From an uncultured Chroococcidiopsis sp. (GTDB lineage: Bacteria; Cyanobacteriota; Cyanobacteriia; Cyanobacteriales; Chroococcidiopsidaceae): 64,000 nucleotides of DNA. This document shows positions 2,948 through 30,161 of this stretch, piece after piece (within the stretch, counting starts at the first letter, position 1; each line of letters begins with the position of its first letter). Under the pieces are notes generated by a model. It saw only the letters and a program-made list of their open reading frames with translations. It had not been told where the DNA came from and ran no database searches. Location: positions 32,001 to 96,000 of the forward strand of contig CAXTYC010000011.1 in assembly GCA_964248365.1 (NCBI GenBank), written 5' to 3'. The position numbers and the translations under genes are program-made.

Positions 2948-3010
2948 TACGGGCGGGTTGATCAGACATACTTGTGAACAAACAGATAACTTGTTTAAAC
3001 CCGCTTCTAC
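2948..3010. repeat. ~63-bp hairpin REP-like element (GTAGGGGCGGG...CCCGCCCCTAC family)
   Basis: Reverse complement of the copy at 34859-34922; its GTAG supplies the TAG stop of the NRPS at 3007. Confidence 0.75.
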
Positions 3011-6000
3011 CTAGTCCCTGCTAAATACTTGTGCAACTGTTGAGCAAGTACCTGAACATGGGGCTTTCTGAGCATAGTCAGGTGATTACCAGGAATGAAG
3101 TGAACTTGTACACCGGACGACGTTGCTAGTTGGCTCCAGCCTAAAGTTGAATCATCAGATTTCTTTTGTGCAAGACTTGTTCTAAATAGAGCGATCGCAT
3201 TTGGGTAAGGTTGAGGTACGTACTTCAAGGTAGCTTCGCTATTGGCATAAAAAATCCTCATTAACCGATGAATAGTTAGCTCGTCCATCATTCGTAAAAG
3301 TGTTTCCTGGGGAATGAGATGGTTAATGGTTGCTCGTTCTAAGGAGGATAGCCATGTGTGAGGAGTAATAATTTTCTTGCTAATTAGTGACCAGTAATCC
3401 AGCAAGAACGGATAAATAGAGCGGGTTACTGTAGTTAGGAGAAACTTTAAACCATCGCACAACGAAAGTTGATTGCTGGCGACAGGAGCTAGGGTATCTA
3501 ATATTGCCAGCATCACTTGCTCTCCTGCTCGGTGTAACTGTTGCGCCATCTCATATGCCACTAAACCGCCAAAAGACCAGCCACCTAGTTGATAAGGTCC
3601 TTGCGGCTGCACCATCCGCAATGCTTTGATGTAGTGACTAGCCATATCCTCAATGCTAGTTAATGGTGAATGCAAACCGTCTATACCGTAGGGTTGCAGT
3701 GCGTAGAATGGCTGATCGGTTCCTAAATGATACGCGATCTCGTAGTAGGGTAAAACAACGCCAAAGATGGGATGGACGCAGAAAAATGGTGGTTTGTCAC
3801 CCGCGCTCTGGAGCGCTACTAAGGGAGACCACGTTAGGGGATCTTGGTTAGGATTTTCATGCTTGTCAATCAGAGGGGCAAATTGCTCAATGGTAGGTTT
3901 AGCAAATAGGTCAGATAAGGGCAAGTTTTGCTCAAATTGTTGATTTATCTGCTCTAATAAGTGGATTGCTTGTAGGGAATCTCCACCCAATTCAAAAAAA
4001 TTATCCTGTATTCCCACTTGCTCAAGCTTAAGGATCTTTGCCCAAAGCGAGGTCAAAGATGCTTCATTTGCAGTTCGAGGAGCAATCAAGGAACGATCTA
4101 TGTTACCAATAATCGGTTTTTTTAAGGCACTTCGATCTACTTTGCCACTAGGAGTCAGTGGTAGGCACGACAGTACTACAAAAGCTGAAGGAATCATGTA
4201 ATCTGGTAATTTTTCCTTCAGAAAGCTCCTCAGCTGGGCGGTTGTCAGTGTTAAATCTGAATTGAAGACCAGATAGGCTACTAGTTGTTTATTGCCATCA
4301 TCTTCACAGGCTATAATGTGGGCTTCTCGTACTGCTGGATTTTGGCATAATAGGCTTTCAATTTCTCCCAATTCAATACGGTAGCCGCGAATTTTAACTT
4401 GATAATCCAGCCGACCTAAAAATTCAAGATTGCCGTCGGGAAGGTAGCGGACTAGATCTCCGGTTTTATACAAGCGGGTAGGAGAAGGAGGGGGAGATGA
4501 GGGGATAAGGGGATGGGGAGACATTTCTACTCTCCCACTCTCCCCCTCTCCCACTCTCCCACTCTCCCACTCTCCCAAGAAGGGATTGGGAATAAATCGT
4601 TGTGCTGTTAAGTCTGGCTGATTGAGGTAGCCTCGTGCTAAACCTACTCCACCAATGTATAATTCACCTGGAATACCGATCGCAACAGGTTGGAGATGAG
4701 CATCAAGAACGTAGATTTGAGTGTTGGCGATCGCTCTCCCAATTGAGGATTTGTTGCTACTATCAGTTACACAAGCAACGGTAGACCAAACAGTTGTTTC
4801 CGTTAGTCCGTAGGCATTGAACAAGCGCCTCCCACCTGCCCAATGAGCCATGTCTGGTGAATAAGCCTCCCCCGCAGAAATCAAAGTTTGCAGTTGGGGC
4901 AATTGTGTCGGTGGTAAAGTCTTTAGTACGGCAGGCGGAAGGGTAGCATGGGTAATGGCGTGATGCCGTAGATAGGAAATCAATGCAGATCCTAAACGTG
5001 CTTCTTCTGGTATTAGGTAGAGTGTTGCACCTACGCCCCATGCCATGAGAATCTCAAAGATGGAGGCATCAAAGCCCAGTGAGGCAAATTGTAGAATACG
5101 GTGTTCTGGTTTGGTATCGAAGGTTTGTATCTGTGCTTGAGCTACATTGCACAGTCCAAGATGTTCGACCAAAACTCCTTTGGGTTGTCCGGTTGAGCCA
5201 GAAGTGTAAATTACATAGGCGAGATTTGTGGATGTTACGCCACTGATCGGATTTTCCCCGCTTTGTTGTGCGATGATTGGACGAGCGCGATCAAGGCAAA
5301 TTAATTGACAATTTTTACAATAGAGGTTATAATCTGCGGCTGATTCGTTAGAATCGTAATCCGCCCAGAAATTAATTTCCGAGCTAATAGCACAAGTGGG
5401 TTCAAACCTACTAGAACACGGATCGTTTGTTGGTTTTAATTGAAGGAAGCTATGAGACAGGGAATTTATTCCTTGTCTTTCATGGAAGGGGAATAGGGGG
5501 GCTAAGGATTGTTGCGTTAGCAGGATAGATACTTGGGAATCCTCTAACATGAACTTCAGGCGTTGGGGTGGATAGGTAGGATCTAAGGGTACGTAGGCTC
5601 CTCCAGCTTTGAGAATTCCTAAAATGCCCACTATCATCTCTATGGAACGCTCGATACAAATGCCGACTTTAACCTCTGGCGCTACTCCAAGTTTTTGCAA
5701 ATAGTCTGCTAGTTGGTTACTGCGACGATTCAATTCAAGATAGGTTAGTTGCTCATCTTGATAAACAGCTGCGATCGCGTTGGGGGTATTATTTACCTGT
5801 TCCTCAAATAATTGATGGATACACTGGGGGAGGCAGTAGGGAGTAGGGAGTAGCTCGAAAAACGAGATGTGGTTTCCTCTGCTCGGAACTTCGTAAGAGA
5901 GGGAGTAGGGATTTTCTTGACTATTGGCTCCCCGCTGATTCGTGTTGTTCCACTCAACTAGCAACTGATGGCGTTCGGTTGCTGTCAAGATTGGTAAACT

Positions 6001-7326
6001 TGCCAGTCTTTGATCGGGATTAATCACAATTCCTTCTAGCAGGGTTTGGAAATGTCCCAGCATTCGGGTGATGGTGCTGTGATCAAAAAGATCGGTACTA
6101 TAAATTACTTGCCCTTTCAACCCATTTGGGCTTCGCCACAGATGAAACTCTAGATCTAACCTGCTAGTACCGTTGTCAAACTCAAACTGACTCAAAGCTA
6201 GTCCAGGTAGCTCTAAAGCGGTAATCGGTGTGTTTTGCAAAGCGATCGCCACACAGAACAAAGGATGTCTGCTTGTTTCCCGCAGGGGGTGGAGTTCCTG
6301 CACTAACTTCTCGAAAGGCAAATCCTGATGAGCGATCGCTCCTAGTGTCACCTCGCGCACTCGTTTCAACAGTTCCCTAAACGTAGGGTTGCCAGATAAA
6401 TCTGTCCGTAGCACTAAACTATTGACAAAAAAACCGATTAATGGTTCTATCTCAGCACGATTGCGGTTGGCTATGGGTGATCCAACAGCAATATCTTCTT
6501 GCCCTGTGTAACGATATAACAACGTTTGAAATGCTGCCAGCAGGATCATGAACAGAGTCACGCCCTCTTGACTTAGTTCCTCCAGGGTTGCCGTTAGGCT
6601 AGTTGACAACTCAAAATTTTGGGTTGCGCCTCGGTAGCTAGGCTGGGCAGGTCGAGAATGGTCAGTGGGGAGATTTAAAATTGGAAGATCGGCTAGTTGC
6701 GATCGCCAGTAGGATAGTTGTGACTCTAGTACTTCCCCTTGCAACAATGAGCGTTGCCAGTGGGCGAAGTCAGCATATTGGATAGGCAGAAGAGGCAAAG
6801 GGGAAGGTTTGCCTGCATTGAAGGCAGCGTAAAGAGTGCCAATTTCTCGCACCAGAATGCCAATTGACCAACCATCGGCAATGATGTGGTGTAGATTCAA
6901 CAGCAGGATATAGTCAAATGCATCTATTTGGAATAATGTCAACCGTAGCAGAAGGTCTGCGCCCAGATTGAAGCTATGTTGTGAAGAGGCGATCGCTTGT
7001 TGTCTTGCTGCTGCTTCGCGCTCACTTGCGGGTAAATAACGTAAGTCTACAATCGGCAGAGATACACTTGCTTCCTCCACAATCACTTGATTGAGTTGTC
7101 CCTGGGTCATTTCAAAGGTTGTCCGTAAAACTTCGTGACGGCGCACAATTTCGTTAAATGTTTGCTCTAGGGCAGTAATATTGAGGTGTCCAGTTAGGCG
7201 AATAGCCGCGGATATGTTGTAAAAGGGATTTCCAGGCGCTAAGGAGTTAAGAAACCAAAGTCGCTGCTGAGCGAACGATGCAGGAAACACGAATTCATTG
7301 TTCAAGACAGAGCTGTTAGAAGTCAT
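3007..7326 (-). CDS. Monomodular NRPS, C-A-T-TE (terminal module)
   Basis: HHIIADGWS (C), YTSGSTGQPKG (A3), YKTGD (A7), GGDSL (T), GWSFGG (TE); hand-aligned specificity code DAFTIAAVWK (Phe/aromatic-like); start taken at MTSNSS. Confidence 0.93.
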   Translation of the reverse strand: MTSNSSVLNNEFVFPASFAQQRLWFLNSLAPGNPFYNISAAIRLTGHLNITALEQTFNEIVRRHEVLRTTFEMTQGQLNQVIVEEASVSLPIVDLRYLPASEREAAARQQAIASSQHSFNLGADLLLRLTLFQIDAFDYILLLNLHHIIADGWSIGILVREIGTLYAAFNAGKPSPLPLLPIQYADFAHWQRSLLQGEVLESQLSYWRSQLADLPILNLPTDHSRPAQPSYRGATQNFELSTSLTATLEELSQEGVTLFMILLAAFQTLLYRYTGQEDIAVGSPIANRNRAEIEPLIGFFVNSLVLRTDLSGNPTFRELLKRVREVTLGAIAHQDLPFEKLVQELHPLRETSRHPLFCVAIALQNTPITALELPGLALSQFEFDNGTSRLDLEFHLWRSPNGLKGQVIYSTDLFDHSTITRMLGHFQTLLEGIVINPDQRLASLPILTATERHQLLVEWNNTNQRGANSQENPYSLSYEVPSRGNHISFFELLPTPYCLPQCIHQLFEEQVNNTPNAIAAVYQDEQLTYLELNRRSNQLADYLQKLGVAPEVKVGICIERSIEMIVGILGILKAGGAYVPLDPTYPPQRLKFMLEDSQVSILLTQQSLAPLFPFHERQGINSLSHSFLQLKPTNDPCSSRFEPTCAISSEINFWADYDSNESAADYNLYCKNCQLICLDRARPIIAQQSGENPISGVTSTNLAYVIYTSGSTGQPKGVLVEHLGLCNVAQAQIQTFDTKPEHRILQFASLGFDASIFEILMAWGVGATLYLIPEEARLGSALISYLRHHAITHATLPPAVLKTLPPTQLPQLQTLISAGEAYSPDMAHWAGGRRLFNAYGLTETTVWSTVACVTDSSNKSSIGRAIANTQIYVLDAHLQPVAIGIPGELYIGGVGLARGYLNQPDLTAQRFIPNPFLGEWESGRVGEGESGRVEMSPHPLIPSSPPPSPTRLYKTGDLVRYLPDGNLEFLGRLDYQVKIRGYRIELGEIESLLCQNPAVREAHIIACEDDGNKQLVAYLVFNSDLTLTTAQLRSFLKEKLPDYMIPSAFVVLSCLPLTPSGKVDRSALKKPIIGNIDRSLIAPRTANEASLTSLWAKILKLEQVGIQDNFFELGGDSLQAIHLLEQINQQFEQNLPLSDLFAKPTIEQFAPLIDKHENPNQDPLTWSPLVALQSAGDKPPFFCVHPIFGVVLPYYEIAYHLGTDQPFYALQPYGIDGLHSPLTSIEDMASHYIKALRMVQPQGPYQLGGWSFGGLVAYEMAQQLHRAGEQVMLAILDTLAPVASNQLSLCDGLKFLLTTVTRSIYPFLLDYWSLISKKIITPHTWLSSLERATINHLIPQETLLRMMDELTIHRLMRIFYANSEATLKYVPQPYPNAIALFRTSLAQKKSDDSTLGWSQLATSSGVQVHFIPGNHLTMLRKPHVQVLAQQLHKYLAGTR

Positions 7327-7401
7327 AGTAATTCGTAATTCGTAATTCGTAATTGTCCCCTTGTCCCCTTGTCCCCACAGCGAACCCTCTCCCACTCTCC
7401 C

Positions 7402-10400
7402 CTACTCCCTCTTTGGGTTGAGTGAAGAGCGTAGGCGGCGATGAGCATCACGAGAAAGAGGAACAATCCCTGGATCTTGTTGTTTTACCTGCACAGTTTG
7501 TAATTCTTCAATAACTTTGGCAAGTGGGGCGATCGCTTTTTCTTCAAACACACTGCGTAAAGGTAACTCTACACCGAAGGCATCGCGGATACGGGAGATG
7601 AGCAAAGTTGCTAGTAGTGAATGTCCCCCAAGATCAAAGAAGTTGTCATGAATCCCCACGCGCTTGATTCCTAGTAGATCAGCCCAAATACTTGCCAATT
7701 TCTGCTCAATGGGCGATCGCGGTGCAGCAACATCCCCCCAATCTCTTTTCACCAAGAAGGGTGCACTTAGCGCACGACGGTTAACTTTGCCGTTGGCACT
7801 CAGAGGTAGTGCGTCCAACACCACAAAGGCAGAAGGAACCATATATTCAGGTATATTTTGCTCTAAGTAACTTTGTAGTTGGGACGGAAGGTGACGAGCG
7901 AACTGTGCCTGTAAAGGATTATTTGCATAAGTTTCCCAAGCACGAGCTGACACCTGCTCTTGTAATTGCCCTAACACAATCCTTTTTGTTACAGATTGGG
8001 GAAGAAAAATTACATCATAAGAACCTGTGGTATCTGCATTTGACCAACTCACGTCAACTGTATAAGGTAGTTCGGCGGCTAGGTTCCACCAATCTTGTGG
8101 ATCAATGGCTGATTGTGCAAGCGGATGTAGCGCATCGCGCATTTGACCTGCGGTTTTAGGTGCTTCCGTTTCTGTCAACAACCATTCTGCCGTTTTGACT
8201 GCTGCAATGACACGGGCATTCGGAATTCCTGTGATCTTAAGTACAGATGGTTGAGTTTCAACTAGATGCTGACGCACCTTTACCATGCTCAAATTGTCCC
8301 CAGTCCAATTTAGTTGATCCCCCCTTTCCCCTTTGCCTTTTCCCTGCTCCCCTGGAGCTTCAATATGCAAAATCACGTTATAGCGAAACTGAGTCAATTC
8401 ATTGTGATATCGACCTGGTGTAAGCAGAACTTGAACATGACTAATTCTTTTCAAGCGCTGTTTTAAGGCGTGAAAGAAAGCCGGATCGATTACTAGTTCC
8501 GTTTCCTGAAATATCGCCCCTCTAAGTTGCTGCTGCAACTGCTCTCGACTAACAGTACTGTCTGCTTGATGTAATGCAACCGCAGCATGGAAAGCTGACA
8601 GCAGGGGTAGACTTCGCACATCTCCAATAAAGACAAAGCCACCAGGTCTGGCAGTATCAATTGCACACTCAAGTACTTGCAGTAGATAATCCAGGCTAGG
8701 AAAGTACTGCACAACCGAATTGAGAACGATCGCATCAAAGGTGTTTGCTTCTATACCTTCAAAGTCAGTCGCCATTTTCTCAAGCAACTTTACCCCAGGA
8801 ATTGCCCTGGTTGCTAATTGCTGCTCAAGGTATTGGATGGACACTGGTGAAAAGTCAGTTGCCCAGTACTGAGCGCAGTGTGGTGCAATTTGAAACAGCA
8901 GTAAACCTGTACCGCAACCAATTTCTAATACTCGCAGGGGCTGCAAAGCCAAAATCTGCTCTACGCGATCGCTCACCCATTGTCGCATTTCCAGGGCTGG
9001 TATGGGTTGACCTGTATAGCTACTATTCCAGCCTACAATATTGAAAGTAGAATCGCGCTCGATATCGGACTGGCGATAAGTCTGATCGTAGAGATTTTGC
9101 CAAGTCCTAATCTGCTCATTAGACAATAATTCTCGTTCCTGAGTGTAGTCCTGATTTGGTACAATGTAAGCGATGATGCGCTGATCTGATTGGTTCTCGT
9201 GGGAGCGAGCGATCGCCACCGCTTCTCGTACTGTCGGATGTTGACGCAATAATGCTTCAATCTCGCCTAACTCAATCCGAAAGCCCCGAATCTTCACCTG
9301 ATCGTCAATGCGACCAACAAATTCAATATTTCCATCGGGAAGATAGCGGGCGAGATCTCCGGTTTTGTAAAGACGCTCGAAAGGATGAAGTGTAAAGGAT
9401 GAAGAAGGAAGTGAATTTTCTGTTTCATCCTTCATACTTCCTTCTTCAGCCTGTGTGAAGGGATTGGGAATAAATCGCTCGTGGGTTAATTCAGGACGGT
9501 TCAAATATCCTCGCGCCAGTCCATCACCACCAATGTACACCTCACCAACTACGCCAATCGGCACAGGTTGAAGGTGAGCATCTAGCAGGTAAATTTGAGT
9601 ATTAGCGACAGGACGACCAATGGAGGGCTTGTCATAATTGTTACCGGAAGCCGCGCTAATTGGGGCAACGGTTGCCCAAATTGTTGCTTCTGTTGGTCCA
9701 TAGGCGTTGAAAAAGCGACGATTTACAGCCCATTGCTTCACAATCTCGTTAGAACAAGCTTCACCGCCAGAAATGACCGTTTGCAGAGTTGGCAATTGTG
9801 CTGCTGGTAAAACTGCCAAAACCGCAGGGGGGAGTATAGTAGTGTCGATCGCCTTTGATTGCAAGAAATGAACTAATTCAGATCCAGGTAAACGGGCTGA
9901 TTTGGGAGGAATATGAAGGCTAGCACCAACTCCAAACGCCAACCACATCTCGAATATGGATGCATCAAAACCCAATGAGCTAAATTGCAGAATGCGATTT
10001 TGTGGTTGCATTTTGAAGGCACGAATTTGAGCTTCGATTACATTACAAAGCCCTCGATGCTCTACTAAAACGCCTTTTGGTTTTCCAGTTGACCCAGAAG
10101 TATAAATGACGTAAGCTAGGTTATTTGCTGTTACACGGATATTTAGAGTTTGCTCGCTGTAGGTGGCGATGGTTTCCCAATCAGTATCTAGGCAAATCAA
10201 TTTTAGATTTACGAATTGGGGTTTCCCCTCAAAAAGCGAAGCTAGCGATCGCTGTGTCAGGATAATTTTTACCCCAGTATCTTCTAGCATAAATGCGAGG
10301 CGATCGCTGGGATAATTTGGCTCAAGAGGTACATAAGCTCCCCCAGCCTTCAAAATCCCCAGTATACCTACTACCATATTGAGCGAAGGCGAGATACAAA

Positions 10401-12180
10401 TTCCTACTAAAACTTCCGGCGCAACGCCAAGTTTTTGCAAGTAGTGCGCTACTTTGTTTGCGCGTCGATCCAATTCCTGATAAGTTAATTGCTCATCTTC
10501 AAAAGTAACGGCAATAGCATCGGGCGTTCGTGCTGCTAAGTCCTCAAATAGTTCGTGACACAAGCGCTTTGGATAATTGCACTGTGTCTGATTCCATTCC
10601 ACCAGTAGCTGATGGCGTTCGGCTGCACTGGGTAGAGGTAAATCTGCAATTCGGGCATCGGGATTAGTAACAATGCCTTCTAACAGCGTTTGGAAGTGAG
10701 TAATAAATCGGGCGATCGTTGCAGCATCAAACAAATCTGTGTTGTATGCAACAAACCCACTCAGTCCTTCTGATGGTTCCTCCCACAACCCACTCAACCC
10801 GTGTCCACACTCCCACAAATGCAACTCTAGATCGAAGCGGGTAGTAGTGACATCAAACTTCAGTGGGTTCAGTGTCAAGTTGGGTAACTCCAGTTTTTGC
10901 ATCGGGGCATTCTGGAGAGCAAAGACGACTTGAAACAATGGGTTACGGCTGGGTTCTCGCAGGGGGTGCAACTCCTCCACCAACTTCTCAAAAGGTAAAT
11001 CCTGATGGTCGTAAGCTGCCAGTGTACGCGATCGCACTCGTGCCAAAAGTTCCCGAAATGTGGGATTATCGGATAAATCCACACGTAACACCAAGCTATT
11101 GACAAAAAAGCCGATTAATGCTTCTAGCTCACTGCGATTGCGGTTGGCAATGGGGATTCCGACTGCAATATCGGTTTGTCCGGTGTAGCGATATAACAAA
11201 GTTTGAAATGCTGCTAGCAGGATCATGAACAGAGTCACGCCTTCCTGACTTAGAGCTTCAAGGGAAGCAGTTAGGCTTTTTGACAACTCTATATATTGTG
11301 TTGCGCCTCGGTAGGTTGGATGTGCAGGGCGAGGTCGGTCAGTAGGAAGATTGAGGATCGGAAGATCGGCTAGTTGCGATCGCCAGTAGGACAGTTGCGA
11401 CTCTAGTATTTCCCCTTGCAACCATTGTCGTTGCCAGTGGGCAAAATCAGCATATTGGATGGGCAAAAGAGGTAAGGGAGACGGTTGATTTGCAGCAAAA
11501 GCCGTGTAGAGTGCTACTAGTTCTCGAATCAGCACACCCAGCGACCAACCATCAGATACAATGTGATGCAGATTTAACAACAGGACATATTCAGATTCGT
11601 CTAATTGCAACAACTTCACTCGCAGCAGCGGATCAGCAGCCAGATTAAATGGACGCGATGCTTCTTCTGTGGCAATTTGCTGGGCGGCTAATTGTCGCTC
11701 TAGGGCAGGTATATGCCGCAAATCGACAATAGGTAGAGATACATTGACGTTGGCAGAAATAATTTGAGCAGGTTGTCCGTCTACCTTGACAAAATTGGTA
11801 CGTAAGGCTTCATGACGACTGACGATCGCATTAAACGCAAGCGATAAAGCTTTTTCGTCAAGCTTTCCTTTGAGGCGAATCGAGAAAGGTACATTGTAGA
11901 AAGGATTTTCAGGTACTAACTGATCTAAAAACCACAATCGTTGTTGAGCGAATGACAGAGGTAATACGCGATCGCGTGACACGGGTACAAGCTGCACTCT
12001 TTTGAACTGAGAATTTGTCTGATGCAGCAGAGCGATCAAATCGGATTTGCGCTTGGCGATTTCGGCACGTAACTGAGGGGTTAACACTCCTTGGGGAGCA
12101 TTGCAGCGCAAGCTTTCATTTTCCAGGTAAACCTGAATATCTAGATCGCGTAGGTGAGCTAGAAATTCAACAGTGGTCAA
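7402..12180 (-). CDS. Monomodular NRPS, N-terminal docking domain-C-A-(N-methyltransferase)-T
   Basis: TubC-type N-terminal domain, HHIVSDGWS, YTSGSTGKPKG, VLEIGCGTGLLL and LNSVVQYFPS (N-MT), GGHSLL; TTG start overlaps upstream stop; hand-aligned code DAFIIGAIWK. Confidence 0.93.
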   Translation of the reverse strand: MTTVEFLAHLRDLDIQVYLENESLRCNAPQGVLTPQLRAEIAKRKSDLIALLHQTNSQFKRVQLVPVSRDRVLPLSFAQQRLWFLDQLVPENPFYNVPFSIRLKGKLDEKALSLAFNAIVSRHEALRTNFVKVDGQPAQIISANVNVSLPIVDLRHIPALERQLAAQQIATEEASRPFNLAADPLLRVKLLQLDESEYVLLLNLHHIVSDGWSLGVLIRELVALYTAFAANQPSPLPLLPIQYADFAHWQRQWLQGEILESQLSYWRSQLADLPILNLPTDRPRPAHPTYRGATQYIELSKSLTASLEALSQEGVTLFMILLAAFQTLLYRYTGQTDIAVGIPIANRNRSELEALIGFFVNSLVLRVDLSDNPTFRELLARVRSRTLAAYDHQDLPFEKLVEELHPLREPSRNPLFQVVFALQNAPMQKLELPNLTLNPLKFDVTTTRFDLELHLWECGHGLSGLWEEPSEGLSGFVAYNTDLFDAATIARFITHFQTLLEGIVTNPDARIADLPLPSAAERHQLLVEWNQTQCNYPKRLCHELFEDLAARTPDAIAVTFEDEQLTYQELDRRANKVAHYLQKLGVAPEVLVGICISPSLNMVVGILGILKAGGAYVPLEPNYPSDRLAFMLEDTGVKIILTQRSLASLFEGKPQFVNLKLICLDTDWETIATYSEQTLNIRVTANNLAYVIYTSGSTGKPKGVLVEHRGLCNVIEAQIRAFKMQPQNRILQFSSLGFDASIFEMWLAFGVGASLHIPPKSARLPGSELVHFLQSKAIDTTILPPAVLAVLPAAQLPTLQTVISGGEACSNEIVKQWAVNRRFFNAYGPTEATIWATVAPISAASGNNYDKPSIGRPVANTQIYLLDAHLQPVPIGVVGEVYIGGDGLARGYLNRPELTHERFIPNPFTQAEEGSMKDETENSLPSSSFTLHPFERLYKTGDLARYLPDGNIEFVGRIDDQVKIRGFRIELGEIEALLRQHPTVREAVAIARSHENQSDQRIIAYIVPNQDYTQERELLSNEQIRTWQNLYDQTYRQSDIERDSTFNIVGWNSSYTGQPIPALEMRQWVSDRVEQILALQPLRVLEIGCGTGLLLFQIAPHCAQYWATDFSPVSIQYLEQQLATRAIPGVKLLEKMATDFEGIEANTFDAIVLNSVVQYFPSLDYLLQVLECAIDTARPGGFVFIGDVRSLPLLSAFHAAVALHQADSTVSREQLQQQLRGAIFQETELVIDPAFFHALKQRLKRISHVQVLLTPGRYHNELTQFRYNVILHIEAPGEQGKGKGERGDQLNWTGDNLSMVKVRQHLVETQPSVLKITGIPNARVIAAVKTAEWLLTETEAPKTAGQMRDALHPLAQSAIDPQDWWNLAAELPYTVDVSWSNADTTGSYDVIFLPQSVTKRIVLGQLQEQVSARAWETYANNPLQAQFARHLPSQLQSYLEQNIPEYMVPSAFVVLDALPLSANGKVNRRALSAPFLVKRDWGDVAAPRSPIEQKLASIWADLLGIKRVGIHDNFFDLGGHSLLATLLISRIRDAFGVELPLRSVFEEKAIAPLAKVIEELQTVQVKQQDPGIVPLSRDAHRRLRSSLNPKRE

Positions 12181-15100
12181 AATTCCACCTCCTCACGATT
12201 TGGACTGGCAATTGTCTCGGTATCAGCCTGTAATTTCTTATTTGCCCCACTCATTGCTTCAATATACTGTGCCAACGCTGCGATCGTAGGTGTCTCAAAT
12301 ATATTACGCAGTGGCATTTGTACCCCAAAGCGATCGCGGATTCTTGAAACTAGCTGCGTGGCTAAAAGTGAATGTCCACCCAACTCGAAGAAATTATCGC
12401 TGATGCCTACTTGTTGTCCTAAAATTTCCGTCCATATCTGCACTAACTGGGCTTCAACTGAAGTTCGCGGGAAAGATTTAATTTCTGGCAATCCAACTGT
12501 AGTAAAATCCGGTGGGGGGAGTTTTTGACGATCTACTTTACCATTGGGTGTTAGCGGCAACGACTCTAAGACTACAAAGGCAGCAGGTAGCATAGAACTT
12601 GGCAGCTTGGTCTTGAGGAAACTTTGTAGCTCGCTGGCTATTAGGTTTTGCTCCTGATTAGCAACTATGTAAGCAACTAAACGGCGATCGCCGGAGATAT
12701 CCTCCCTTACTACGACAACAGCTTCTTGCACTGCCGGATGCTGGTTTAAGACGGTTGAAATCTCGCCCAACTCAATCCGAAAACCTCGGATCTTCACCTG
12801 ATCATCGCTACGCCCAATAAATTCAAGATTGCCATCAGGAAGATAACGGGCGAGATCTCCGGTTTTGTAAAGTAGGGGCGGGCTTTTCAAGATTGTTTGT
12901 TTTCCAATAGGTATCTCTATTGAACCCGCCCCTACTAATGCGTTCTTTCCACAAAAAGGATTAGAGATAAACCGTTCATTCGTCAAATCAGGACGATTTA
13001 GATAGCCTCGCGCCAATCCATCACCACCTATATATATTTCTCCTATAACACCAATGGGGACTGGTTTTAGGTGGGGATCTAGTAGATAGATTTGGGTATT
13101 GGCGATCGCCCGTCCAATTGGAATTGATCGATCTGGTACATCTTGCACTTCATACCAGCAAGTAAATGTAGTATTTTCAGTAGGTCCATATACGTGTAGC
13201 AAATGTTCAGGCGCACCTTTGTGAACTTCTTTCACCCACCTCACGTCAACCGCTTCACCACCAAAAAGTAAGTAGCGCAATGAACTAAAAGCCGATGGAA
13301 CTTCCCGCGCCAAAGAGTTAAATAAGGCTGTTGTCAAAAACAGGACGCTGATTTGTTGCTGTCGAATCTCTTGGGCAAAGTCTTGGGGGGAAAGTATAAC
13401 GTCTCGATTGATACCAATTAATTGCGCTCCATTTAGAAGTGCGCCCCAAATCTCAAAGGTTGCTGCATCAAATGAAATGTTGGAGCATTGAGCGACTTTA
13501 TCTTCAGGTTCCCATGTGATGTAGTTAGTGTTGCACACTAATCGATTCACGGCTCGATGAGGTACTGCCACGCCTTTTGGTGTTCCCGTTGAGCCAGAGG
13601 TGTAAACTACATAGGCGAGGTTATCTGCGGTTGTCTGGTTACTTAGGTTTTCCTCGCTATAGTGCGCGATCGCTTCCCAATCCCTCTCTAGGCAAACAAC
13701 TTTTAGATTTTGGATTTTAGCTCCCCCCTTGATCCCCCTCCCGTCCCCCTTTTTAAGGGGGAAGCCAGAGGAAGCTACGCTATTAAGTTCACGGGGGGCT
13801 GGGGGGATCTGATTTTGGATTGATTTAGTCTGCTCTTTTAGAGAATTGATTTGTGAATCTTCACCAGTAGTCCCCAATTCAAAATCTTGCTGTGTTAGCA
13901 ATATAGATACCCCAGCATCTTCGAGCATAAACTGCAATCGCTCTGAAGGATAGGTTGGATCTAGAGGAATATAGGCTCCTCCAGCTTTCAGGATACCTAG
14001 CAAACAAGCTACCATTACAGGGGAAGGCTCCATACAGACACCTACCAACGTTTCACAACCTACACCCATTTTTCGCAAATAATGCCCCAGTTGGTTACTA
14101 CCGTTGTTTAATTCCTGGTAGGTAAATTGTCGATCTGCATAGCGCACTGCGATCGCATTTGGTTTTTGTGCTGCGATCGCTTCAAACAATTGGTGAATAC
14201 ATAGATTATTTGGATAATCACGCTCGGTTTGATTCCACTCAACTAAAAGCTGATGCTCTTGTGCGTAGCTCAAAAGAGGAAGATCTGCTAAATGGGTATC
14301 GGGATTAGCAACAGATCCAGTTAATAGCGTTTGAAAATGCCCTGCCATGCGAGCGATCGTATCCGCTTCAAATAAATCAGTGCTGTATACTAAAACACCC
14401 CGCAATCCCTCCGACTGCTGCCAAGAGTCCCCCCACAGGTTTCTAAAGTTTGAGCCACACTCCCACAGATAAAGCTCTAAATCAAACCGAGTGGTTGTCG
14501 TCTCAACCTGATAAGGCGAGAGCGTTAGCCCAGGTAGCTCTAATTGCTCCATTGGTGCGTTCTGAAGTGCAAACACCACTTGAAATAATGGATTACGGCT
14601 AAGGCTGCGTTCTGGGTGCAATTCCTCTACCAGCTTCTCGAAGGGTAAATCTTGATGAGCATAGGCTTCTACTGCAATCTTTCGCACTCGTAAGAGCAAT
14701 TCTCGAAAGGTAGGATTGCCTGATAGATCGGTTCGCAGAACTAAACTGTTGGCAAAAAAACCGATCAAGTTCTCCAACTGTTGCCGATTGCGGTTGGCGA
14801 TGGGCGATCCTACGGCTATGTCTGTCTGTGCGGTGTAGCGATACAGCAGTGTTTGAAAAGCTGCCAGTAACGTCATAAACAGCGTTACGCCTTCTTGCTG
14901 ACTCAGTGCCAAGAGTGCTTGGGATAAATCCTTGGGCAATTCTAGCAACTGGGTAGCTCCTCGGTAGCTTTGGGCTTGAGGGCGGGGGCGATCGCTTTGG
15001 ATCTCCAGTAAGGACAGATTCTTGAGCTGCGATCGCCAGTAGGACAGTTGCGACTCTAGCACTTCTCCTTGCAACCACGAGCGTTGCCAATGGGCAAAGT

Positions 15101-15662
15101 CTGCATATTGAATCGGCATTACTGGCGACGGTAAAGGTTTTTGGGCATATTCGGCAGTGTAGAACAATCCCAGTTCTCGAATCAGTAAGGCGATCGACCA
15201 CTCATCAAAGACAATATGGTGCAGATTGATAATTAGCACATACTCTGTTTTGTCTAGTTGCAGCAGTGTTACTCTTAGCAAAGGTCCAGTAGCTAGGTTA
15301 AAAGGCTGCCCGATCTCCTGTGTAATTAACCGTTGTGCTGCTGCATCTCGATCGCAAACACATTGCTGCTGTAAATCAATCAGCGACAGCGGTATTCTCT
15401 GGTGAGGCGCAATTATCTGTACAGGTTGCCCCTCCAAGGTTCCAAAGGTAGTACGTAATACTTCGTGGCGCTGCACAATCTGATTAAAGCTTTCTTCTAG
15501 CGCCACCAGGTTCAGATCACCTGTAAGGCGTATTACAGTTGGCACATTGTAGAACGAAGTGCCAGGAAATAACTGATCGAGAAACCAAAGCCGCTGTTGT
15601 GCAAATGATGCAGGAAAGACAAAAACTTCTTCAGAGTTGGGGGCTGCTCCTGCTTGGGTCAT
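12177..15662 (-). CDS. Monomodular NRPS, C-A-T (first gene of operon)
   Basis: HHIVFDEWS (C), YTSGSTGTPKG, GGHSLL; hand-aligned code DAFFLGVTFK (Ile-type); C-terminal REEVEF motif. Confidence 0.93.
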   Translation of the reverse strand: MTQAGAAPNSEEVFVFPASFAQQRLWFLDQLFPGTSFYNVPTVIRLTGDLNLVALEESFNQIVQRHEVLRTTFGTLEGQPVQIIAPHQRIPLSLIDLQQQCVCDRDAAAQRLITQEIGQPFNLATGPLLRVTLLQLDKTEYVLIINLHHIVFDEWSIALLIRELGLFYTAEYAQKPLPSPVMPIQYADFAHWQRSWLQGEVLESQLSYWRSQLKNLSLLEIQSDRPRPQAQSYRGATQLLELPKDLSQALLALSQQEGVTLFMTLLAAFQTLLYRYTAQTDIAVGSPIANRNRQQLENLIGFFANSLVLRTDLSGNPTFRELLLRVRKIAVEAYAHQDLPFEKLVEELHPERSLSRNPLFQVVFALQNAPMEQLELPGLTLSPYQVETTTTRFDLELYLWECGSNFRNLWGDSWQQSEGLRGVLVYSTDLFEADTIARMAGHFQTLLTGSVANPDTHLADLPLLSYAQEHQLLVEWNQTERDYPNNLCIHQLFEAIAAQKPNAIAVRYADRQFTYQELNNGSNQLGHYLRKMGVGCETLVGVCMEPSPVMVACLLGILKAGGAYIPLDPTYPSERLQFMLEDAGVSILLTQQDFELGTTGEDSQINSLKEQTKSIQNQIPPAPRELNSVASSGFPLKKGDGRGIKGGAKIQNLKVVCLERDWEAIAHYSEENLSNQTTADNLAYVVYTSGSTGTPKGVAVPHRAVNRLVCNTNYITWEPEDKVAQCSNISFDAATFEIWGALLNGAQLIGINRDVILSPQDFAQEIRQQQISVLFLTTALFNSLAREVPSAFSSLRYLLFGGEAVDVRWVKEVHKGAPEHLLHVYGPTENTTFTCWYEVQDVPDRSIPIGRAIANTQIYLLDPHLKPVPIGVIGEIYIGGDGLARGYLNRPDLTNERFISNPFCGKNALVGAGSIEIPIGKQTILKSPPLLYKTGDLARYLPDGNLEFIGRSDDQVKIRGFRIELGEISTVLNQHPAVQEAVVVVREDISGDRRLVAYIVANQEQNLIASELQSFLKTKLPSSMLPAAFVVLESLPLTPNGKVDRQKLPPPDFTTVGLPEIKSFPRTSVEAQLVQIWTEILGQQVGISDNFFELGGHSLLATQLVSRIRDRFGVQMPLRNIFETPTIAALAQYIEAMSGANKKLQADTETIASPNREEVEF

Positions 15663-16006
15663 CAAGGAATCTACCTGTGATCGCTTACTCTTTTTAACGG
15701 AGGTGAAGTATAAAATTGATCTACATTTAGATAGATTATCAGTTACCTGTTAGCTGTTAGCGGTTAGCTGTTGGCTGTTAGCTGTTATCAACTGCCAACT
15801 ACTAGTTACCTGTTATTTTTGTTGTATTATTAAATACAAAGATCATAGTAATTCTATTTAAGATTGATAAATATATAATTCTTACCTTAGATAGTTTAGA
15901 CTTATGCCATTTGGTTTAATTGCTGCAACAAATCTAAGAGCTAAAACTCTCTCCCACTCAGCCTTTCCTAATCCAAAATCTAAAATCTAAGATCTAAAAT
16001 CATATT

Positions 16007-17125
16007 ATGCTATTTACGCCCCTTAATTTCCTGCTTCAGTGGCTGACTGGACTCTTATCTATTGCACTACTGGGAGGAGGAATTTACATTGTCCATCAAT
16101 GGTATGAGCGAGAACTGATCGATCGCGCCTGGTTGATATTGGGATTAGCAATGTCTACCTGGTCGTTGGTGGGATTTCTTCCGGTTTCCTTGCTGCTGCG
16201 TCGTCCTGGTGCTGATGAACCAAAAGCAATGCGTAGCGGGATTGTACAACGAATAGCCCGACCAGACGGTAGCGAAATTCAAGTCGAGTTTTACGGTTCA
16301 CCCGATGCTCAACCAATTATCATGACTCACGGTTGGGGACCAAATAGCACTGTCTGGTACTACGCAAAGCGACAACTGGCTAACCATTTTCGCTTGATTG
16401 TATGGGACTTGCCAGGGTTGGGAAAATCTAGTAAGCCAAAAAACAAGGATTACTCAATAGAAAAATATGCTCGTGACTTGGAAGCAGTTATATCTCTGGC
16501 AGGTGACAAGCCTGTGATCTTGCTAGGACATAGCATGGGTGGTATGATTATACTCACATTCTGTCGCCTGTTTCCACAGTATCTAAATCGTCAGGTTGCA
16601 GGTTTAATTTTAGTAGACACTACCTATACCAATCCGGTCAAAACTTCCATCTTCAGCAAATTTCTACAAGCTATACAAAAGCCTTTGATAGAGCCTTTGC
16701 TGTATGTGGCGATCGCTCTGTCGCCTCTACTATGGTTAATCAGTGGCTTAAGCTATCTCAATGGTTCGATGCACATCACGACCGAAATATCTGGCTTCAC
16801 AGGCAAAGAAACACGAGGTCAACTCAACTTTTCAACCCTATTAGGTCTACGCGGCTCACCTGGCATACTAGCAAGAGGGATGCTGGCAATGTTGAAATTC
16901 AATGAAACGGCAACTTTGCCAACTATTAATATTCCAGCTTTGGTAATTGTAGGAAAAACAGACATCGCAACCGTTCCCGCAGCCAGCAAACATATGAGCA
17001 TTGACTTACCTCTGGCTGAACTTGCAATCCTACAACCTGCTGGACATATGGGATTAATGGAGCGAAACGAACAATTTGCCTCGCTAGTTCGTTCGTTTAG
17101 CACAGGCTGTTTAAGCTCCAAATGA
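16007..17125 (+). CDS. Membrane-anchored alpha/beta hydrolase
   Basis: Two N-terminal hydrophobic helices, HGWG, DLPGLGKS, GHSMGG nucleophile elbow, AGH catalytic His. Confidence 0.88.
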   Translation: MLFTPLNFLLQWLTGLLSIALLGGGIYIVHQWYERELIDRAWLILGLAMSTWSLVGFLPVSLLLRRPGADEPKAMRSGIVQRIARPDGSEIQVEFYGSPDAQPIIMTHGWGPNSTVWYYAKRQLANHFRLIVWDLPGLGKSSKPKNKDYSIEKYARDLEAVISLAGDKPVILLGHSMGGMIILTFCRLFPQYLNRQVAGLILVDTTYTNPVKTSIFSKFLQAIQKPLIEPLLYVAIALSPLLWLISGLSYLNGSMHITTEISGFTGKETRGQLNFSTLLGLRGSPGILARGMLAMLKFNETATLPTINIPALVIVGKTDIATVPAASKHMSIDLPLAELAILQPAGHMGLMERNEQFASLVRSFSTGCLSSK

Positions 17126-20580: not shown

Positions 20581-23364
20581 TTAACCCACAAGCATTGCTA
20601 CAGGAAAGTATTTCAGCGCTTCACCGATTTGCACAGTACCATCAGCTTGAATCATTTGCTCAGTGATTGCATCATGCCAAGTTGAGGAAGCTTGTGAAGG
20701 TAAATGAAGGCAAGTATCATGCCATTGTTTTCCTAGCGGGTACTCTTCAGGCTGAATCAAACGGGTGAGAAAACGGGGAACAATGGTAATAATCGTCGTA
20801 TTACCGTCGCTTCTAGCAAAGGCAACAATATGATCTTTAAACTTACCGCTCACCTCCAAAGGTAGGTAATTTCCTTTCTGGAAAACTGCCAAATTCTGTT
20901 TTCGGGCAAGCAGCGCTTTGTAAGTTAGAAATAACTTAATTCTACCATCTTCCGAACTTGAAAACAACTCATCAATCAGCTTTAAAATATCTGTTTGTGC
21001 TTTTTCTTTAATGTCCTTTAAAAACGAAATCAAACGCGAGTAATCAACCGGACGACGGTTATCAGGATCTACCATACTCAAATTCCATAATTCGGTTCCT
21101 TGATAGGTATCAGGTACACCTGGAGAGGTAATTTTCAGCAAAGTCTGTGCTAGAGAATTATAAATACCATAGCTAGCTACTCGCTTTTGAAAAGGTAGAA
21201 ACTTTTGCATGAAAGAATTTGATTTACTTGGCTCTAAAACCTTCTCTACAAAGTTAAGAAATCCCTCTTCATAAGCAGTATCGGGGCGTAACCAAGCTGT
21301 TTGAACTTTAGCTTCTCTTACTGCCTTGAGCATATAATCTTTAATCCTTTTAACAAATTCAACATTCTCACTTTCATTAAAAGGATAAGTACCAACCAAG
21401 GTTTGATAAAAGAAGTATTCATCATTTGCAGCAGGAACCGCTTTTCCTCTAACGTTGCTTTTGTGAGAGCGATTTATTTCACTCCAAGTTTTTACTTGGA
21501 GTTCCCATTCTTTCGGTATTTCTGAAAGCACATTTAATCTTGCTCTGACATCCTCACCTCTTTTGGTATCATGAGTTGCCGTAGCATTCATTTTATGAGT
21601 CCAAGTGATATTTTGTTTTTGATTGAATTCGTGAAAGTCGGCAATTGTAATGCCAAATTTTTCAGGATTACCGCCTACTTCGTTCAAGGATAATAGTCGG
21701 TTATACACATAAAATAATGTGTCTTCAATTCCTTTTGCCATTAAAGGTCCAGTTAGCTGCTGCAACCTCATTACGAAATGAAGCCGTTGAAATTCTTCTG
21801 GGGTGAGTGGCTTTTCAAATTCACGCAAAAGCAAGTTTTCAATAAAGTTAACTTCATTCAAAAGCAGCCCAATTCGATTTCTTGCTTCTTCGATAACTTG
21901 CTTAATGTAGGAGCGATCCTCTTCCCTAAATCCATCTCCATTTACGTAGGTGCGATAAACTGGAAAAAGGGCAAGCACTTCTGCAAGAGTTCTTTTTAAA
22001 CCATTTAAGGTAAAATCGCTAGAGCGCCTAGATTGTCCCGCTATTCTTTTGAGAATTTGAGCTAGGTTGTCTACATCTCCCGCCAAATTCTTATCAACTA
22101 TAATTTGTTTTTTTTCAATAAACAACTGCTCATAAGACCTATTAGAGCCAGTAAATTTAACATAAATATCGTTAAAATGTTTTTCATTCTCACAGCAACA
22201 AAAAATACTATTGACGCGGTTTAAAAAATCATAACCACTTGTTCCTTGAATATTCCAAATCTCAGGTAAGTTCTCTTTAAACTCCAAAATCTTTTCAACA
22301 GTTATATAAACATCTCCGGTGATTTCCCTAAGTCGCTTCAGATATTCCGTAGGATCGTAAAGTCCATCAATATGGTCTATTCTTAATCCGGTTATTGTTC
22401 CTTTTTCAACTAAATGGCTTATCAAGGCGTGAGTTTTGTAGAGAACTTTTAGTTCTTGTACTCTTAAAGAAATTAGTTCATTAACATTAAAAAATCTTCT
22501 ATAATTTATTTGTTCTGCACCTACTTTCCAAAAAGATAGACGGTAAAACTGTTCGTTTAGCAAACTATCCAAATTATTGAAAGTATCGGATTTTTCCGGT
22601 TCTCCATTAAAAAATTCTACATTTTTCTCAATAAATTTTTTGATTTTAGGATTTTGTGTATATAGCTCCCACAAAATTCCTTTAACAAAAGCTATTTGGT
22701 CATATCGTTCTTGACCTTTGGTTTCGCTAGGGACGCTTTTTATTACGTAAAGCATACCCAGTAACTTGACAAAATCTGGATGTTGCCTGCCCAATGTTCT
22801 TGCTAAATATGCTAAATTATGATTAAGAAACTGAGCATAAGATTCTATGCGAACAGGTAATTTTAAACTATAGTAATTGACGCTTAAACCACTCTCATCA
22901 TACTTAAGCTGAATTTCCCCATTTTCTAAACATTCTCCGTAAAAATTCCCTAGCATCGGGGTAAGTACTCGCCCGCGAATATCTTCGTTAGGATGATCCC
23001 ATTCAATATCGAAATAGTCCGAACGTTCAGAATCAGAACCGTTTTCTAGAACGTCCATTAGCCACTGGTTTTCACTATCATAAGCCATGTGGTTAGGAAC
23101 AATATCTTGCACCCATCCCATGTCATGCTGCTTAATTTCATCTGTCAGTGCTTCAAAATCTTCTAATGTCCCCAGTTCGGGATTTAGTAATGTCGGGTCA
23201 ACTACATCATAACCGTGTGTGCTTCCTTTTCTAGCTTTAAAAATTGGTGAAGCGTAGATGTCTGAAATTCCTAATTCTGCTAGGTAAGCAATTATATTTT
23301 TTGCTGCTGGGAAATTAAACTGTGAATTAAATTGAATTCGGTAAGTAGCTGTGGGAATTCGCAT
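20581..23364 (-). CDS. treY: Malto-oligosyltrehalose synthase
   Basis: PTATYRIQF, GSTHGYDV, DIVPNHM, LRIDHIDGL, ATHDTKRGED, SMVDPDNRRPVDY. Confidence 0.96.
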   Translation of the reverse strand: MRIPTATYRIQFNSQFNFPAAKNIIAYLAELGISDIYASPIFKARKGSTHGYDVVDPTLLNPELGTLEDFEALTDEIKQHDMGWVQDIVPNHMAYDSENQWLMDVLENGSDSERSDYFDIEWDHPNEDIRGRVLTPMLGNFYGECLENGEIQLKYDESGLSVNYYSLKLPVRIESYAQFLNHNLAYLARTLGRQHPDFVKLLGMLYVIKSVPSETKGQERYDQIAFVKGILWELYTQNPKIKKFIEKNVEFFNGEPEKSDTFNNLDSLLNEQFYRLSFWKVGAEQINYRRFFNVNELISLRVQELKVLYKTHALISHLVEKGTITGLRIDHIDGLYDPTEYLKRLREITGDVYITVEKILEFKENLPEIWNIQGTSGYDFLNRVNSIFCCCENEKHFNDIYVKFTGSNRSYEQLFIEKKQIIVDKNLAGDVDNLAQILKRIAGQSRRSSDFTLNGLKRTLAEVLALFPVYRTYVNGDGFREEDRSYIKQVIEEARNRIGLLLNEVNFIENLLLREFEKPLTPEEFQRLHFVMRLQQLTGPLMAKGIEDTLFYVYNRLLSLNEVGGNPEKFGITIADFHEFNQKQNITWTHKMNATATHDTKRGEDVRARLNVLSEIPKEWELQVKTWSEINRSHKSNVRGKAVPAANDEYFFYQTLVGTYPFNESENVEFVKRIKDYMLKAVREAKVQTAWLRPDTAYEEGFLNFVEKVLEPSKSNSFMQKFLPFQKRVASYGIYNSLAQTLLKITSPGVPDTYQGTELWNLSMVDPDNRRPVDYSRLISFLKDIKEKAQTDILKLIDELFSSSEDGRIKLFLTYKALLARKQNLAVFQKGNYLPLEVSGKFKDHIVAFARSDGNTTIITIVPRFLTRLIQPEEYPLGKQWHDTCLHLPSQASSTWHDAITEQMIQADGTVQIGEALKYFPVAMLVG

Positions 23365-23437
23365 ATATTTGGATTTTTAAGCTAGGTTTAAGGAAAGGGC
23401 TAATGGATAATTGAAAAACTAACCACCAATTACCAAT

Positions 23438-23544
23438 TAAGTAGGTCGTCTGAAATAAACAGCGAACCGTGTGTTGGCGGATCTGATCGGCAGCAAGGGT
23501 TATCTATGTTGACGGTTCGCTGTTTATTTATGACTTTGTACTTA
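23438..23544. mobile_element. MITE-like palindromic element with TAAGTAGG-type ends
   Basis: Perfect 18-bp inverted repeat AAATAAACAGCGAACCGT (23453-23470 / 23512-23529) inside imperfect termini TAAGTA...TACTTA. Confidence 0.6.
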
Positions 23545-23583
23545 CCAAAATTTCTTAAATGTATATAACAGTTAATTTTTAGA

Positions 23584-25407: not shown

Positions 25408-25427
25408 ATTAAGTTCTGAGTGAGGGG

Positions 25428-25552
<125 letters not shown>

Positions 25553-25566
25553 TCACAATTCACACT

Positions 25567-27735: not shown

Positions 27736-28260
27736 AGGTGAAATCTCAATTTAAAATTATTTGGTAAAGAACAATTTGTTAATTATTAACCCAAAAGCAG
27801 GAACTTTCTTGCGGCATGGCAACGATTAAACTATTGCCATACCATTGTTATAATGTTTGGCATTAAACGCCTGCTTCCAGGCTGCAAGGCATATTCCAAT
27901 TTCGTTAATACGTTAAGCTATATCTGTTTTTTACAGATTCAATAGCTTAGTGAACTTTAGTTTAACTTGAGCTTAATATTTGTTATTCCATCCTAAGAAA
28001 GAAGCTTTGGCTATACCTTTAGATGATTTTTGCTCAATCTAATGGTATGCTTGAGTAAGAGAATCTACCTCTTGCACTCGTTTTTTATCTGCACAAGGAG
28101 CTAGCTGTCAAAAAAGCATAGAGAGGGAATATATCGCGTTTCTACTTAGTCAAATTTTTACCACTTAATATCCGATATAAGTGTTATATAATACTCCAAA
28201 ATGTAATATTTGCCTCTTTCTATAGGCAGATGGTTGATAGTCATAATTATTGAATCCTTA

Positions 28261-28314
28261 GATGATGAAACAGCTAGTTTCATCATCTATATAGAGACGC
28301 GCTTAGGCGCGTCT
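28261..28314. terminator. Two hairpins downstream of malQ
   Basis: GATGATGAAAC/GTTTCATCATC and AGACGCGC/GCGCGTCT stems. Confidence 0.45.
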
Positions 28315-28430
28315 TTTTCCTAGCTAGAATGTTATAAAAATACATTCAATTAGCGATTAGCGAGTAACTTTTAGCTGTAACTGGTAGTTGGTAACTGTTA
28401 ACTGGTAACTGGTAACTGGTAACTGGTAAT

Positions 28431-29942: not shown

Positions 29943-30161
29943 ATAGATGCTTGCAAGCTTACCAAAAATCAACAATAACGCTTAACTCCAACGATCTTCA
30001 TGATGCTGTGGATAGAATACCCGTAGGAAGACTTGGGGAAGCGATCGCACTAACCCCAGAAAATTGCAATCCATTTAACTTTCAGCTTATAGGCATTGGC
30101 AAAATTGGGATAGACTCAATAACTTTGTACAGTGGCTTAACCCAATTGGACTGGAAAGAAA

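Follow-up and report, generated by a model that had tools for sequence, protein, structure and literature searches.

A recurring basic-tail/acidic-leader pair and possible iterative peptide assembly by three single-module synthetases of Chroococcidiopsis

Introduction

What does the first condensation (C) domain of a nonribosomal peptide synthetase (NRPS) assembly line take as its donor? The question is raised by three NRPS genes in a 64,000-nucleotide stretch of DNA from an uncultured Chroococcidiopsis sp. (contig CAXTYC010000011.1 of assembly GCA_964248365.1, positions 32,001 to 96,000 of the forward strand), which is the window of this study. The three genes lie co-oriented on the minus strand. 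They were first described from their letters and open reading frames (ORFs) alone, and that sequence-only reading gave them the architectures C-A-T, docking domain-C-A-MT-T and C-A-T-TE (A, adenylation; T, thiolation or carrier; MT, N-methyltransferase; TE, thioesterase), with which our domain scan agrees. It had also listed no PKS (polyketide synthase), acyl ligase, exporter or MbtH nearby; indeed, none of the first three is present among the flanking ORFs scanned, and MbtH has zero matches in the whole genome.

The same reading had suggested that module 2 might hand its chain back to module 1 as well as forward to module 3. We find that the basic C-terminal tail of gene 2 and an acidic leader at the start of genes 1 and 3 recur together at junctions of unrelated clusters, and that the tail is kept in relatives that have lost gene 3. 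The simplest reading of these sequences is that the carrier domain of module 2 (T2) would dock on the first C domain (C1) as well as on the last (C3). We put at about one half the probability that the chain loops from module 2 to module 1, in which case it would start as Ile on T1, pass through C2 to T2, and either go back through C1 or leave through C3. The comparative support for iteration and the docking pair, which we did not find described, are new here; the gene family itself was already catalogued.

Results

A basic tail and an acidic leader recur together at NRPS junctions

The junction between genes 1 and 2 is of an established kind. Gene 1 ends in REEVEF and gene 2 opens with a TubC-type beta-hairpin docking domain (TubC_N, residues 4–54, E 1.6e-19), both as had been read from the sequence, and gene 1 docks on gene 2 through this pair. 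The gene 1 stop overlaps the TTG of gene 2, and the REEVEF codons double as a GAGGAGG ribosome-binding site for gene 2. The other end of gene 2, which had been noted as basic, is indeed so and reads IVPLSRDAHRRLRSSLNPKRE. A Pfam scan places no family on this tail or on the leader, and a profile of the tail searched against the PDB gives no match below E 0.26.

The leaders of genes 1 and 3 (EEVFVFPA and NEFVFPA, respectively) are part of a longer shared start that the sequence-only reading had considered special. This stands for E-x-F-V-F-P and falls for SFAQQRLWFL, the first C core motif; since the latter also occurs in the internal C domain of gene 2 and in most C domains seen, only E-x-F-V-F-P is informative. 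Across 32 aligned gene 1 sequences, E, V, F and V of the leader are each conserved in at least 90%, and F and P are invariant. A single-chain AlphaFold model of C1 (32 rows) renders the leader as a beta-strand; as the model is poor (predicted template-modelling score 0.59, TM ~0.4 to solved C domains) and does not bear conclusions on the active site, only this local call is used, and weakly.

A scan with gene 1 returned 71 loci, 38 of which were counted as orthologous on the basis of domain content. The non-orthologous loci contain 25 junctions at which the upstream protein ends in a T domain: eight end in acidic short motifs, 11 in other sequences (mostly acidic and helical) and six in basic tails. 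Every one of the six basic tails is followed by the leader (recognised by pattern in five cases and by eye at L069), against none of the 19 other ends. A further test used 20 tail-profile matches with frames of atypical gene 2 length, picked by the analyst. Six of these are internal and 14 are free C-terminal tails, of which 13 are followed by a gene for a leader-type C domain (three of these from a cluster already in the profile) and one by a non-NRPS gene. Judged by these sequence comparisons, the basic tail and the acidic leader are a matched junction pair that recurs in unrelated NRPS clusters. We propose that the gene 1 leader is an acceptor site for the gene 2 tail, and that the same tail, as donor, docks on gene 3 as well as on gene 1.

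Several points weigh against reading a return path into this pair. The patterns for tail and leader were drawn up with the data already in view, and several of the junctions belong to clusters that are kin to one another. The gene 2 tail resembles the first half of an ordinary in-cis T–C linker with a basic extension, so it could join subunits without chain transfer, and binding of T2 to C1, even if real, need not mean that a chain is passed. Since C1 and the main C3 clade are sisters (see below), the leader could have been inherited and not necessarily selected; it may also be a mere structural strand of the fold.

A 2021 review of docking domains sorts those of NRPSs into COM, PAX and beta-hairpin classes (PMC9113145). 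The tail/leader pair was not found described in the literature searched, with MIBiG, most subscription journals, sequence figures and bioRxiv supplements outside its scope, and is apparently undescribed so far. We also considered free-standing tail peptides as small regulators and rejected them: the one at L174 lacks a start codon, and the others examined are degraded 3'-ends of gene 2 or a piece at a contig end.

The tail is retained where gene 3 has been lost

In some relatives gene 3 is lost and the TE is fused to module 2. Five such forms were found without use of the motif (L005, L020, L028, G011 and G029; 64–73% identical), and all five keep the tail motif between T and TE, followed by 15–51 residues that cannot be aligned. 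Fused forms number 15 in all, 13 with the strict pattern and two differing from it at one position, with a linker remainder of 15–69 residues after the motif; the motif is found in 0 of 12 T–TE linkers of gene 3. A tail that served gene 3 alone would be free to decay in the fused forms, and its retention there thus supports a loop back to module 1. The leader of gene 1 is still present in these two-gene relatives, and in the first five fused genomes the leader occurs only on gene 1 among the 22 readable starts of 26 C-domain matches. Two of these five genomes show no C domain beyond the cluster's two, the completeness figure being missing for three. On the other side of the balance, 10 of the 15 fused forms were reached via the tail profile, and all of them may stem from a single fusion event.

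The window's genome (99.97% complete by markers, 102 contigs) encodes three C domains, two leaders, one tail and eight carrier domains, and none of the five carrier domains outside the cluster has a tail. A single tail therefore faces two leaders. This count bears on the idea that the donor of C1 comes from a different synthetase encoded elsewhere in the genome. Genes of this cluster can lie far apart (in G550 a gene-3-like gene is ~1.1 Mb from genes 1 and 2), and the genome does hold an A-T-reductase that stands alone between two histidine kinases (L001:7763-10873, G000 contig C15), an A-T-hexapeptide-repeat synthetase (L002:6352-10347, G000 contig C58) and a 1748-aa AMP-binding-KR-T-TE protein (KR, ketoreductase; L003:9806-15049, G000 contig C23). 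The gene for the last lies within a glycosyltransferase/polysaccharide export cluster and adjoins prephenate dehydrogenase. None of the three ends in a free T domain with a tail, however, and the completeness of the genome, though it is in many contigs, and the two two-gene genomes without other C domains also speak against a distant donor, which we regard as very improbable. The loop-back put forward from the sequence alone, still a proposal, has gained support from the tail/leader pairing, the tail kept in fused forms and the lack of another tail donor in this genome.

C1 is of the LCL type with an altered active site

The sequence-only reading had likened C1 to the other two C domains and not to a starter domain, which our comparisons bear out. 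C1 is 66% identical to C2 and 60% to C3. It scores 355–257 bits against the C domains of Txo1, Txo2, DhbF, TycC and fuscachelin synthetase (TycC 272) and 68 bits against 7C1H, which we take to be a starter domain; the LCL and starter labels of the compared PDB entries are likewise our assumption. From these scores and from its nesting with C2 and C3, C1 is classed as LCL and not as a starter. In a tree of 47 rows, the C1 clade (support 98/96) is sister to most C3 domains (90/89), and FastTree on 161 rows agrees with this placement.

The earlier reading had overlooked two features, the divergent hydrolase discussed below and the C1 active-site variant HHIVFDE. Both His residues and the Asp are invariant in 32 of 32 aligned C1 rows. 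The Gly of the motif is replaced in 38 of 40 (Asp in 28, Glu in 10) and is kept in all 44 C2 and all 29 C3 domains; for this count L029, first listed as a C3, was reassigned manually to C1. Mean identities in the 17 loci with all three domains are 68.5% for C1, 71.4% for C2 and 69.0% for C3. C1 also carries an insert with four residues (F, R, G and R) that do not vary in any of 27 orthologues; a related but shorter insert is present in C2, and none in C3. At two loci (L063 and L136) position 1 is taken by an unrelated C-A with a canonical HHxxxDG and a Leu code, with a leader-like start and the REEVEF end kept. The A domain of module 2 also varies between lineages.

Published precedents for such a change are mixed. 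A fuscachelin C3 with HHxxxDE is active and prefers Gly to Leu as acceptor (PMC8097023); by analogy with this sole tested case, the variant may disfavour an acceptor such as Leu, which would count against a loop through C1. So would the substitution itself, seen next to the non-catalytic X domain with its HRxxxDD motif (PMC11546977) and the N-terminal C1 of beauvericin synthetase, inactive yet needed for expression (PMC5457498). First-module C domains of unclear role have been noted in cyanobacterial orphan clusters (PMC4558948). As far as sequence can tell, the variant active site fits activity as well as inactivity.

The main rival explanation starts here. C1 would be a non-elongating copy of C3 with a structural or gate-keeping role, stabilising A1 and perhaps still binding the tail as a scaffold, and the product would be a colinear Ile-NMe-X-Phe. 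The tripeptide would be freed as an acid or be oligomerised and cyclised on the TE, as happens in gramicidin S biosynthesis, and the two-gene forms would make a diketopiperazine or a TE-built cyclo-oligomer. The near-universal variant motif, the sister position of C1 to C3, the colinear gene order in this genome and the many cyanobacterial orphan clusters whose first module has a C domain without a clear role (PMC4558948) are all in keeping with an inert C1, and its best precedent is the inactive but indispensable C1 of fungal iterative NRPSs (PMC5457498). It is at odds with the invariant His and Asp residues, with a conservation of C1 equal to that of working C domains, with the tail retained where gene 3 is missing and with the canonical C domain that replaces C1 in one lineage. 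We consider an inert C1 rather unlikely, though less so than the other alternatives to the loop.

In another alternative, C1 would cap Ile with an acyl or other group of primary metabolism, drawn from acyl-ACP (acyl carrier protein) or acyl-CoA or delivered by the hydrolase acting as a transacylase, and a fixed acyl-tripeptide would result. A catalytically intact-looking C1 with a specific active-site change and an invariant insert would suit this role, as would the serine hydrolase itself. A hydrolase 64–68% identical to that of the window lies beside the NRPS genes in 23 of the 38 orthologous loci; among 401 genomes sampled from the phylum, 29 have it, of which 22 place an NRPS no more than 1.5 kb away and 27 encode a gene-3-like TE. 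In just one of the 12 family loci read, however, does the hydrolase adjoin the cluster, and it would accordingly be dispensable or mobile. C1 is also far closer to LCL than to starter domains and groups with the other C domains of the cluster, no acyl ligase is found among the recurring neighbours, and the retained tail is left unexplained, all of which makes capping improbable. Searches of the PDB, the Atlas and homologues for the function of the hydrolase returned generic esterase names only, and a hydropathy scan (threshold 1.8) did not flag its N-terminus, leaving a membrane anchor unsupported.

Predicted substrates and proposed route of the chain

The three hand-aligned pocket codes of the sequence-only reading were reproduced exactly (A1 DAFFLGVTFK, A2 DAFIIGAIWK and A3 DAFTIAAVWK), with positions anchored on GrsA numbering. 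We take DAFFLGVTFK to be an Ile code, DAFTIAAVWK a Phe code and DAFIIGAIWK a hydrophobic one; a PDB search gave nothing informative on the A2 residue. In orthologous loci, the module 1 code is DAFFLGVTFK in 32 of 35 and the module 3 code is DAFTIAA(V/I)WK in 17 of 18, while the 32 module 2 codes divide into 25 DAWFLGNVVK, a Leu code, and seven DAF(I/L)IGAIWK.

In the route that we favour, A1 would load Ile on T1, and C2 would join it to the N-methylated residue on T2. The basic tail of gene 2 would then dock on the acidic strand with which the C domain of either gene 3 or gene 1 begins. On gene 1 the T2 chain would return to C1 and be taken over by a new Ile-T1; on gene 3 it would pass to C3, gain Phe and be released by the TE. 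The two residues would alternate strictly, giving a linear or cyclic (Ile-NMe-X)n-Phe series whose length would depend on how genes 1 and 3 compete for the single tail; in the two-gene forms, the part of gene 3 in this competition would go to the fused TE. Binding, C1 activity, substrates and product are all predictions in this scheme. We consider it an even bet that the system is a ring-closed, trans-acting NRPS in which modules 1 and 2 strictly alternate and tail competition sets the length, the pair being a general docking class besides. As part of this ring-closed reading we propose two orthogonal docking pairs, with the basic tail and acidic strand supplying both the return path and the exit.

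If this is true, a widespread cyanobacterial orphan family that has lacked a product since 2014 gains a testable product prediction, namely a peptide ladder with steps of 240.184 Da (Ile + N-methyl-Leu, in most relatives) or 274.168 Da (should the residue of the present cluster be N-methyl-Phe). The standard colinear prediction is a tripeptide and overlooks such a ladder. N-methylated (Ile-NMe-X)n peptides would then be made by many soil and biocrust cyanobacteria. Iteration aside, scattered NRPS genes would be easier to put in order with a short docking pair that is orthogonal to beta-hairpin docking, and such a pair could serve NRPS engineering.

An orphan family of terrestrial cyanobacteria

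The cluster is not unique to this genome and is widespread across terrestrial cyanobacteria. Its genes occur in the orders 1-2-3, 3-1-x-hydrolase-2 and 1-x-hydrolase-2-3, and the order is thus shuffled, with gene 3 distant in G550, so that the order of action must come from docking. The tail profile matches 15 of 16 sampled genomes of the family. The 12 family loci read comprise seven three-gene loci (one with a split gene 3 and one with gene 1 beyond the fetched stretch), three fused forms, one with a distant gene 3 and one that is decayed. Broken or decaying copies, with frameshifts or stops that are possibly assembly errors, occur at L004, L029, L232 and L246. Clusters with a free tail and without any gene 3 were looked for and discarded as a class, as gene-3-like genes lie elsewhere in G550, G404 and G597.

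The sequence-only reading knew of no product for this arrangement, and we found none; the arrangement itself was, however, catalogued in 2014 as an orphan family. This would be CF-39 of Calteau et al. (PMC4247773), which comprises eight NRPS-only clusters of 4–6 genes and 11.5–22.5 kb with a conserved hydrolase gene, shuffled order and no assigned product. A member of CF-39 is expected to show >52% identity to the clusters of the eight listed strains; the family spans Microcoleus vaginatus, heterocystous and unicellular cyanobacteria, with hosts including M. vaginatus FGP-2, Oscillatoria, Tolypothrix and Chroococcidiopsis thermalis PCC 7203 (PMC4247773). The cluster studied here likewise has three NRPS genes and a hydrolase and is NRPS-only; an orthologous cluster is present in an M. 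vaginatus genome (L038), and gene order is shuffled across loci. It is very probably CF-39, matched by legend, text, tables and one genome of the same species and not by strain sequences. The portions of PMC4247773 consulted differ from this work in proposing no mechanism, docking or iteration. Our literature search, with MIBiG and most subscription journals outside its scope, found no later paper on CF-39 and no product for the family.

Some neighbours are restricted to particular lineages and absent here, and were rejected as parts of the cluster: the PepSY, EamA and kinase genes of Microcoleus and a glycosyltransferase of Nostoc (10 loci). The last is a GT-B glycosyltransferase between gene 1 and the hydrolase in L016 (10072–11598) and nine other Nostocales loci, where it may glycosylate the product. 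The final 60–140 bases of gene 2 are repeated at least 1–1.5 kb downstream in several relatives (L174/L207 in G614, L202 in G427, L200 in G431, L201 in G441, L203 in G409 and L204 in G456). The cargo between genes 2 and 3 varies there and includes toxin-antitoxin-like, glycoside hydrolase and restriction-type genes, and the L174 copy starts near a GCGATCGC palindrome. The gene 2/gene 3 junction looks like an insertion hotspot in those relatives; the repeat with cargo is not present in the window's genome.

Genomic setting

The features of the locus are collected in Table 1. The rbcL gene marks the DNA as cyanobacterial, and its closest named relatives are Chroococcidiopsidaceae. The NRPS cluster is flanked by rbcL/panB (220–2865) and by a trehalose/glycogen block of treY, treZ, glgX and malQ (20581–29975); glgX likewise borders some Nostoc copies of the cluster. 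An Sfp-like candidate for a phosphopantetheinyl transferase is encoded on contig C15 of the same genome as the window. A plasmid search gave generic NRPS labels only.

Table 1 Features of the NRPS locus, in window coordinates.
Feature	Position	Strand	Remarks
Gene 1, NRPS C1-A1-T1	12177-15665	minus	1162 aa; start TTG 15665 or ATG 15662
Gene 1 acidic leader EEVFVFPA	15609-15632	minus	just before first C1 core motif; proposed acceptor site
C1 condensation domain	14244-15617	minus	LCL type by sequence; active-site variant HHIVFDE
C1-specific insert (FRxLWG)	14400-14447	minus	gene 1 residues ~407-422
Gene 1 C-terminal short linear motif REEVEF	12177-12197	minus
Gene 2, TubC_N-C2-A2-N-methyltransferase-T2	7402-12180	minus	1592 aa; TTG start
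Gene 2 basic C-terminal tail IVPLSRDAHRRLRSS	7405-7470	minus	putative docking donor
Gene 3, C3-A3-T3-TE	3007-7395	minus	1462 aa from GTG; ATG at 7326 the probable start, favoured over GTG
Divergent alpha/beta hydrolase	16007-17125	plus	Ser176, His347, probable Asp319; hydrophobic N-terminus
rbcL	220-1671

Comparison with known systems

The closest comparison suggested from the sequence alone was with the rhabdopeptides, and it holds as an analogy and not as a mechanism. The rhabdopeptide/xenortide synthetase Kj12ABC uses three interchangeable beta-hairpin domains, one on each subunit, with promiscuous pairing (Hacker et al., 10.1101/349555; PMC9113145), and its terminal C domain releases the chain onto an amine (10.1101/349555). 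Like the present system, it consists of three subunits of one module each, has an N-methyltransferase, opens with a subunit that bears a C domain, includes a junction of short motif and beta-hairpin, and is proposed to work iteratively. Here, in contrast, TubC_N is found only on gene 2 and the second junction is of another kind; the gene 2 tail is basic, whereas the ends that precede beta-hairpin domains are acidic; release would be by a TE, and strict alternation is expected. The cluster falls outside the rhabdopeptide family.

The second junction shares with the COM helix-hand, the PAX three-helix and the PaxA/B pairs the binding of a C-terminal peptide to the N-terminus of the next C domain, which is predicted here. 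Judged by the weak strand call and by comparison with E–C junctions (E, epimerization), the leader would lie where the COM hand has its first strand. COM pairs, in which a helical donor peptide binds a hand of three strands, have been reported for E–C junctions (PMC9113145), whereas here a T domain lies upstream and there is no E domain. The PaxA/B pair combines an acidic C-terminal part with a basic helical N-terminal part (PMC8251938), opposite to the charge pattern of the basic tail and short acidic strand seen here.

In its proposed mode of action, the system is nearer to the fungal beauvericin and bassianolide synthetases, in which the chain swings between T1 and T2 and two C domains alternate (Yu et al. 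2017, PMC5457498). Both have a C-A-T-C-A-MT-T core, and the fungal products alternate plain with N-methyl residues, as is predicted here. The fungal enzyme is a single protein with a twin T2, an inactive C1 and a terminal C3 that returns and cyclises the chain, and a hydroxy acid takes the place of Ile. Here there are three proteins, a single T2 and a TE, and C1 would have to carry out the return in trans. By this analogy, the cluster would work more like the alternation of beauvericin synthetase, split over subunits.

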